DNA from: Escherichia coli
Lineage (GTDB): Bacteria; Pseudomonadota; Gammaproteobacteria; Enterobacterales; Enterobacteriaceae
Direction: 5' to 3' (one strand)
NCBI RefSeq assembly: GCF_003334355.1
Contig: NZ_QOWP01000059.1
Length of the DNA: 9,461 nucleotides
The notes beneath the pieces were generated by a model that was given only the letters and a program-made list of their open reading frames with translations, did no database searches and was not told where the DNA came from. The stretch's first letter is position 1. Every line of letters starts with the position of its first letter. The translations under genes and the position numbers were made by a program. Of the stretch, positions 8,869 to 9,461 are shown piece by piece.

Positions 8869-9281
8869 CTATCTGGTGCTACCGCTGCTTTATCTGCTGG
8901 TTAACGTCAAACTCGCCCAGCTTGGCGAGAGCTTCCCGATAACTATCGTCACCTTCTTACCCGCTCTGCTGTTGCTGTTTGTCGAGCGCATCAATATCAA
9001 AAAATTAATGATCGCGCTGGGGGTAGGGGGCGGGCTGACGGCGTTTAACTACCTGTTCGGTCAATCACTGGATGCCAGTAAGTACGTAACGTCAGCGATG
9101 CTGTTTGTTTATACCGTGGTGATCATTGGCATGGTGTGGAGTATTCGCTTCAAAACCATTTCACCGCATAACTACATTAAGATTTTGCGTTTTTTCTGGC
9201 TGGTGGTGGGACTGGTGGTGGGGTTAGCTGCGGTTGAAATGGCGCAGATAATTCTCAGCGGCGGCAGCAGTTTAATGGAAG
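8843..9281 (+). pseudogene. wcaD: Colanic acid polymerase WcaD (Wzy-like), N-terminal 146 codons only; interrupted by IS1
   Basis: ATG at 8843 gives MSRSIRICSYLVLPLLYLLVNVKLAQLGESFPITIVTFLPALLLLFVERINIKKLMIALGVGGGLTAFNYLFGQSLDASKYVTSAMLFVYTVVIIGMVWSIRFKTISPHNYIKILRFFWLVVGLVVGLAAVEMAQIILSGGSSLME, a multi-TM WcaD-like N-terminus. Frame is broken at 9281/9282 where the IS1 terminal repeat begins; stop TGA at 9284-9286 is IS1-derived. K-12 WcaD is about 405 aa as I recall. Confidence 0.85.
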
Positions 9282-9461
9282 GGTGATGCTGCCAACTTAC
9301 TGATTTAGTGTATGATGGTGTTTTTGAGGTGCTCCAGTGGCTTCTGTTTCTATCAGCTGTCCCTCCTGTTCAGCTACTGACGGGGTGGTGCGTAACGGCA
9401 AAAGCACTGCCGGACATCAGCGCTATCTCTGCTCTCACTGCCGTAAAACATGGCAACTGCA
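9282..9461 (+). mobile_element. IS1 insertion sequence, left end (IRL plus 5' part of insA), runs off the window
   Basis: ggtgatgctgccaacttactgatttagtgtatgatggtgtttttgaggtgctccagtggcttctgtttctatcagctgtccctcctgttcagctactgacgg... matches my recollection of the IS1 left terminal inverted repeat and insA leader with at most 1-2 differences. Confidence 0.9.
9337..9461 (+). CDS. insA: IS1 InsA (transposition inhibitor / N-terminal part of InsAB' transposase), 5' partial
   Basis: GTG at 9337 opens [41 protein letters not shown], the zinc-finger N-terminus of IS1 InsA. Not in the supplied track because it is short and runs off the window. Confidence 0.85.

Follow-up and report, generated by a model that had tools for sequence, protein, structure and literature searches.

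Nested deletions of the gal region that start from a fixed IS1 were reportedly described by Reif and Saedler in 1975. IS1 and Tn9 typically cause adjacent deletions that begin exactly at an end of the insertion sequence (IS), vary in length and are not marked by direct repeats (PMC9330008, section 5.2.1; see also PMC11708052). The subject here is a 9,461-nt stretch of Escherichia coli DNA (contig NZ_QOWP01000059.1 of assembly GCF_003334355.1; "the window" refers to the whole of it), near the right-hand end of which the colanic-acid gene wcaD breaks off after nt 439 and IS1 sequence begins. Comparison with related genomes suggests, with a probability of about 0.8, that an adjacent deletion mediated by IS1 ends at this junction, as a further step in a nested series, and that the junction is not the product of a simple insertion.

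Eight complete genomes of the lineage have a 768-bp IS1 adjoining wcaD in the same orientation, with left flanks that are 99.9-100% identical. The IS1 abuts wcaD at nt 552 in PSS-12, at nt 400 in GPEC1352, GPEC1354, GPEC1356 and E5, and at nt 375 in EA13, PEC414 and ARL09/232. In seven of these genomes the right IS1 end meets wcaM at exactly the same base (position 44055 of the locus in strain E956), leaving 939 bp of that gene, and 14,660-14,837 bp are deleted relative to E956; in the remaining one, ARL09/232, the right side of IS1 is manC of the O-antigen cluster. No direct repeat or target duplication flanks IS1 in the six complete relatives that were read base by base: the left flanks end in ...GGCGTTA, ...GAAATGG and ...ACTGGTG, whereas the right flank begins CTGGTTATC... 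(GATATTTAT... in ARL09/232). The left inverted repeat of IS1 is kept to its last base in every one of these junctions. It is the combination of a fixed right junction, four left junctions (that of the window included), an intact left inverted repeat and missing direct repeats that constitutes the signature of adjacent deletion, and we infer the place of the window junction in the series from these relatives. The original prediction spoke of an IS1 inserted inside wcaD; read as a simple insertion, this does not fit genomes that have wcaM or manC on the far side of the element, no target duplication and about 14.7-14.8 kb missing. Its caveat that the remainder of wcaD and the distal wca genes might be missing through the action of IS1 matches the structure of the relatives.

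The window junction itself is sharply defined. The ATG of wcaD (8843) is preceded by GGAGG, and the gene overlaps the end of wcaC. E. coli genomes with an intact wcaD (including E956 and O111 strains) match the window at 100% up to position 9281 and none matches beyond; since the uninterrupted E956 sequence continues from there with TTATTTCG, the breakpoint lies unambiguously between 9281 and 9282. The left inverted repeat of IS1, GGTGATGCTGCCAACTTACTGAT, has a single occurrence in the window, from 9282, and is complete to its first G, with wcaD unbroken to the preceding base, so that the putative deletion starts exactly at an intact IS terminus. IS1 identity and truncation near codon 146, both part of the original prediction, stand; what is added is that the break falls after nt 439, that is, after 146 codons plus one base. 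The WcaD frame, which had been said to end exactly at 9282, continues for 5 nt into IS1 (G|GG, followed by the stop) and specifies a 147-aa product. Residues 1-146 correspond to positions 1-146 of the 404-position WcaD profile TIGR04010 (E=1.2e-81, 275 bits, below the 589.65-bit cutoff for the full-length protein), and are identical to WP_000091407.1 of E956 and 11128. wcaD is here a true but truncated colanic-acid polymerase gene, a pseudogene remnant. The intact gene codes for a polymerase of the Wzy type, and the 147-aa WcaD' stump cannot work as one.

The 180 nt of IS1 in the window are identical (180/180) with the complete 768-bp copies of the nt-400 and nt-375 genomes (GPEC1352, EA13, PEC414 and ARL09/232) and differ at 1 nt from the PSS-12 copy. 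The GTG start of insA at element nt 56 lies on the + strand and points the same way as the wca operon, as had been noted. Its 41 visible codons match the IS1/IS1595 zinc-binding domain NF050000 (E=3.4e-11, above the 28-bit cutoff) and the IS1 transposase profile NF033558 (E=2e-8). The homologous copies in six complete relatives are 768 bp long with both inverted repeats present, and copies in the relatives are annotated with a programmed frameshift; the general organisation is that described for IS1 (PMC12428005). The element is an IS1 family member on every feature testable in its 180 nt. That it might be only a short IS1-like fragment is rejected as far as can be tested, the 180 nt being a perfect IS1 start and the relatives' homologous copies being complete.

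The same wcaD nt-439|IS1 junction is found on at least nine independent draft contigs, all of which end within IS1; an assembly artefact was rejected on the strength of nine independent contigs with the identical junction. The exact junction is absent from 5,426 complete E. coli genomes, and a 29-nt pattern across 9281|9282 had no match in metagenome contigs or in contigs of species-representative genomes. In wider public assemblies, the 147-aa WcaD' of the window type is present on 7 contigs, with a 145-aa partial form at contig ends on 3 more, compared with 39 contigs for the 133-aa WcaD' (nt 375), 39 for the 134-aa form (nt 400) and 2 for the 192-aa form (nt 552). Partial WcaD proteins of 171, 195 and 198 aa were checked for further junctions: their contigs, drafts with the O111 allele (L026, L027 and L025), stop within wcaD at nt 512, 584 and 595 and have no IS sequence at the end; these uninformative ends could be IS junctions trimmed by the assembler or plain assembly breaks. 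A literature search (IS1/wcaD/colanic acid and O111/colanic acid/pseudogene/wza) found no paper on this allele.

The proposed course of events is as follows. A single IS1 would be anchored by its right end in wcaM, of which 939 bp are left. The InsAB' transposase would repeatedly join the left end of the element to targets further to the left by intramolecular replicative transposition, each event removing the intervening DNA and keeping IS1. The first event would have removed ~14.7 kb, comprising the 3' part of wcaD, wcaE, wcaF, gmd, fcl, gmm, wcaI, cpsB, cpsG, wcaJ, wzxC, wcaK, wcaL and the 5' part of wcaM, and in separate sublineages short later events would then have cut wcaD back from nt 552 to nt 439 (the allele of the window), 400 and 375. 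The predicted right flank of the window IS1 is accordingly ...CATTACC|CTGGTTATCGATGATATT, within 'wcaM; the predicted 'wcaM (CTGGTTATCGATG...) should be followed by an SDR epimerase gene, galF and an O111-type colitose O-antigen cluster with its own promoter. The net phenotype would be irreversible loss of a colanic acid synthesis that had functionally been lost already. One large deletion followed by short further ones is the simpler account, because four left endpoints within 177 bp of a 14.8-kb interval, if drawn independently and uniformly, have P ~ (177/14800)^3 ~ 2e-6. The search for the IS1|'wcaM junction returned exactly seven complete genomes among the 5,426, none with wcaM sequence to the left of IS1, and the presumed ancestor, a simple IS1 insertion in wcaM beside an intact cluster, is absent from the same set. 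The wider assembly collection lists the 289-aa WcaM remnant in 118 blocks; among the matches listed, none comes from GCA_050027235.1, ERR13482266 or the four SRR samples SRR3951466, SRR30349207, SRR20168716 and SRR10357312, all of which have the window-type left junction.

Several observations weigh against this account. The nine contigs with the exact junction all stop within IS1, and the right end of the window's own copy lies beyond the window. E956, with its intact wcaD, has 0 mismatches to the window in 9281 nt and so is no more distant from it than the deleted relatives; single-nucleotide polymorphisms (SNPs) therefore leave room for a separate simple insertion in an ancestor resembling E956. 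IS1 prefers AT-rich DNA, and wcaD, at 43.7% GC, is poorer in GC than the deleted interval (52.4%), which could cluster independent IS1 events. Moreover, IS1 copies are near-identical genome-wide, which makes 180-nt identity weak evidence for descent from the same copy. A first rival reading is a simple insertion at wcaD nt 439 with an 8-9-bp target duplication, in which the right IS1 end would be joined to TAATGGAAGTTATTTCG and the rest of wcaD and the distal wca genes would follow intact after 768 bp. (The target copy expected in that case is wcaD nt 431-439, TAATGGAAG, and the remaining wcaD begins TTATTTCGAAATATC.) A suitable ancestor exists in E956, 100% identical over 9281 nt and with a full cluster, wcaD is relatively AT-rich, and the window shows nothing past IS1 nt 180. 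Yet none of the eight complete genomes with IS1 against wcaD has this structure, all of them lacking the 3' part of the gene, and one anchored copy accounts better for four different, equally oriented IS1 junctions that lie within 177 bp in a single clonal background. We therefore consider a simple insertion unlikely.

The same wcaD'-IS1-'wcaM structure could in principle be generated by RecA-dependent homologous recombination between an insertion at nt 439 and a directly repeated IS1 in wcaM, with excision of ~14.8 kb. Recombination of this sort is a standard cause of deletions without target duplications between direct IS repeats (PMC11708052), and its product is indistinguishable by sequence from that of adjacent deletion. 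It is nevertheless decidedly unlikely, in that each of the four junction types would call for its own wcaD insertion and its own recombination, and that neither intermediate (IS1 in wcaM with the intact cluster on its left, or IS1 in wcaD followed on the right by the remainder of that gene) was found in the complete genomes. Very improbable is an arrangement in which inversion or translocation between IS1 copies has joined the window IS1 to unrelated DNA on its right, so that wcaD' and 'wcaM are no longer neighbors. In its favor, chromosomes of the lineage hold from 3-4 up to at least 34 IS1 matches per record, depending on the strain, and one draft contig has IS1|'wcaM with a porin/IS5 region on the left in place of wcaD. 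This is the only such contig, however, and possibly a mis-join, whereas all eight complete genomes keep wcaD' to the left of IS1 and seven keep 'wcaM to the right.

The contig in question (L037; GCA_958308955.1, CATRGP010000046.1, positions 7565-10870) contains the identical IS1|'wcaM junction, preceded on the left by a porin gene and by IS5-like and other IS genes, and results either from inversion or translocation by way of IS1 or from a mis-join during assembly. On the other side of the element, ARL09/232 (NZ_CP049967, positions 3419-4969) has IS1 at wcaD nt 375 joined rightward to a 5'-truncated manC, and lacks 'wcaM, the SDR gene, galF, the first glycosyltransferase gene, gmd and gmm, a rightward adjacent deletion that probably abolishes O-antigen synthesis. 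Because the right end has moved in ARL09/232 and the DNA on the left is unrelated in L037, the IS1 copy can be regarded as the fixed anchor of repeated rearrangements.

Two records with the window's identical junction, L004 and L005 (GCA_050027235.1, ERR13482266), were compared with the window over 153-9355. To the left of position 6369 they differ from it by ~1.1% (~100 SNPs), and their wza and wzc are uninterrupted at the codons where the window has stops; no difference is present between 6370 and the IS1 junction. This identity up to the junction, with divergence and intact wza and wzc codons to the left, indicates that the junction is identical by descent and has been moved, by recombination together with the neighboring O-antigen region, into another background, with an apparent breakpoint in or near wcaA. 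We incline, by a narrow preference, to the view that a single wcaM-anchored IS1 is still active in the wild: after the 14.7-kb deletion it would have taken short steps to the left (113, 39-152 and 25-177 bp) and, in one strain, a step to the right into the O-antigen cluster, generating a natural allelic ladder (wcaD nt 552, 439, 400 and 375), which recombination with the O111-type O-antigen region would have carried into L004 and L005.

The operon into which these events fell was, to judge from its coding sequences, no longer functional. The best uninterrupted reference, avian pathogenic E. coli (APEC) E956 (NZ_CP087294), is 100% identical to the window over 1-9281, has wcaD intact and the whole distal wca cluster present, with wcaD to wcaM at 2,779,306-2,795,456, and contains no IS1 there. 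E956 and the window have in common two stops in wza, one in wzc and a frameshift in wcaC (Table 1). In the enterohemorrhagic E. coli (EHEC) O111:H- strain 11128, which has the same divergent wca allele at 99.7% identity, both wza stops and the wcaC frameshift are likewise present and wzc is intact, with TCA at codon 71 (as in L004); the wzc stop is thus specific to the E956/window lineage, and the wza and wcaC lesions are common to it and 11128. Annotation concurs, wza being marked as having an internal stop and wcaC as frameshifted in E956, PSS-12 and 11128, while L004 has GAA and TGG at the two wza positions. Since E956, which has no IS1 there, carries the lesions of all three genes, both the export and the synthesis of colanic acid were already disabled before the wcaD event. 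The expectation that IS1 would be polar on the wca genes downstream is largely beside the point, and such polarity has little biological weight, because the operon was already inactivated upstream; the genes downstream of the window wcaD are probably gone.

The wca allele itself is divergent. Of the 5,438 E. coli records that match window positions 153-9281, only 63 reach 99% identity or more and 4,580 lie in the 80-90% range; among the matches listed, those of high identity to the divergent segment are mostly O111 strains. Partial WcaD proteins annotated as Citrobacter freundii fall into the same 90%-identity cluster with few residue differences, which hints at an inter-genus origin of the allele. 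A CTATGG tandem repeat in wcaC (window 7759-7770) has two copies, compared with three in O111:H- 11128, a difference of 6 bp.

Table 1. Features of the window (9,461 nt)
Feature	Coordinates	Strand	Basis or detail
IS110-family element end	1..152	-	left window boundary; transposase gene just left of window
yegH (TerC family), intact	254..1837	-	RefSeq annotation of 100%-identical E956 segment; open reading frame (ORF) list
wza pseudogene	2496..3635	+	premature TAA 2922-2924 (codon 143), TAG 3549-3551 (codon 352)
wzb, intact	3641..4090	+	ORF list; E956 annotation
wzc pseudogene	4087..6249	+	premature TAA 4297-4299 (codon 71)
wcaA, intact	6322..7164	+	ORF list; E956 annotation
wcaB, intact	7167..7652	+	ORF list; E956 annotation
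wcaC pseudogene	7652..8868	+	frameshift in A-run 7783-7788; 61-aa and 328-aa pieces
wcaD 5' remnant, nt 1-439 (146 codons + 1 nt)	8843..9281	+	WcaD TIGR04010 match; identity to intact wcaD
Hybrid codon GGG and IS1-supplied TGA stop (9284-9286), ending WcaD'	9281..9286	+	translation
IS1 nt 1-180, window ends within element	9282..9461	+	identity to complete 768-bp IS1 copies
IS1 left terminal inverted repeat, 23 bp, complete to outermost base	9282..9304	+	exact match
insA, first 41 codons (zinc-finger part), GTG start at 9337	9337..9461	+	profile matches NF050000, NF033558

The window has the appearance of a whole short-read contig with a repeated IS element at each end (152 nt of an IS110-family element and 180 nt of IS1), which would explain why the far IS1 junction is missing. 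In E956 and PSS-12 the edge (start codon) of the IS110-family transposase coding sequence lies 10 nt to the left of window position 1, and strains without that element match the window only from position 153 or 231. A 49-aa ORF on the - strand between yegH and wza (2038-2187; RefSeq hypothetical proteins WP_162829205.1 and WP_220546745.1) sits in the long leader and promoter region of wza and is possibly not a real gene.

Mechanism, genes and outcome are all already known, the first two from textbooks, and the importance of the allele beyond annotation is small. For annotation, wcaD should be named here as a pseudogene remnant beside an IS1 deletion scar. This E. coli lineage of O111 type would have lost its colanic-acid locus irreversibly, beyond a mere interruption, and the nested endpoints would illustrate adjacent deletion by IS1 cleanly in nature and offer a possible clonal marker. 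If the anchored IS1 is indeed still active, the ladder would show that intramolecular IS1 transposition in nature strongly prefers nearby targets, and it would serve as a fine-scale lineage marker.

In its visible part (nt 1-180) the element does not differ from the IS1A-like, 768-bp IS1 of E. coli and Shigella, with which it shares the left inverted repeat, the insA GTG at nt 56, the zinc-finger N-terminus and all 180 nt. Structures of the form wcaD'-IS1-'wcaM are already annotated in RefSeq (PSS-12, GPEC1352/54/56, E5, EA13 and PEC414), in the same lineage, with the same dead operon and IS1 orientation and 0-2 nt differences in 180; the left breakpoint of the window is at nt 439, whereas theirs are at nt 552, 400 or 375, and only the nt-439 breakpoint is missing from the complete genomes. 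Classical IS1 adjacent deletions, in the gal region and with IS1/Tn9, likewise have one end fixed and the other placed precisely at variable endpoints, are nested and are free of direct repeats. The series to which the window presumably belongs, by comparison with its relatives, comes from natural isolates of several countries and hosts and not from a laboratory selection.
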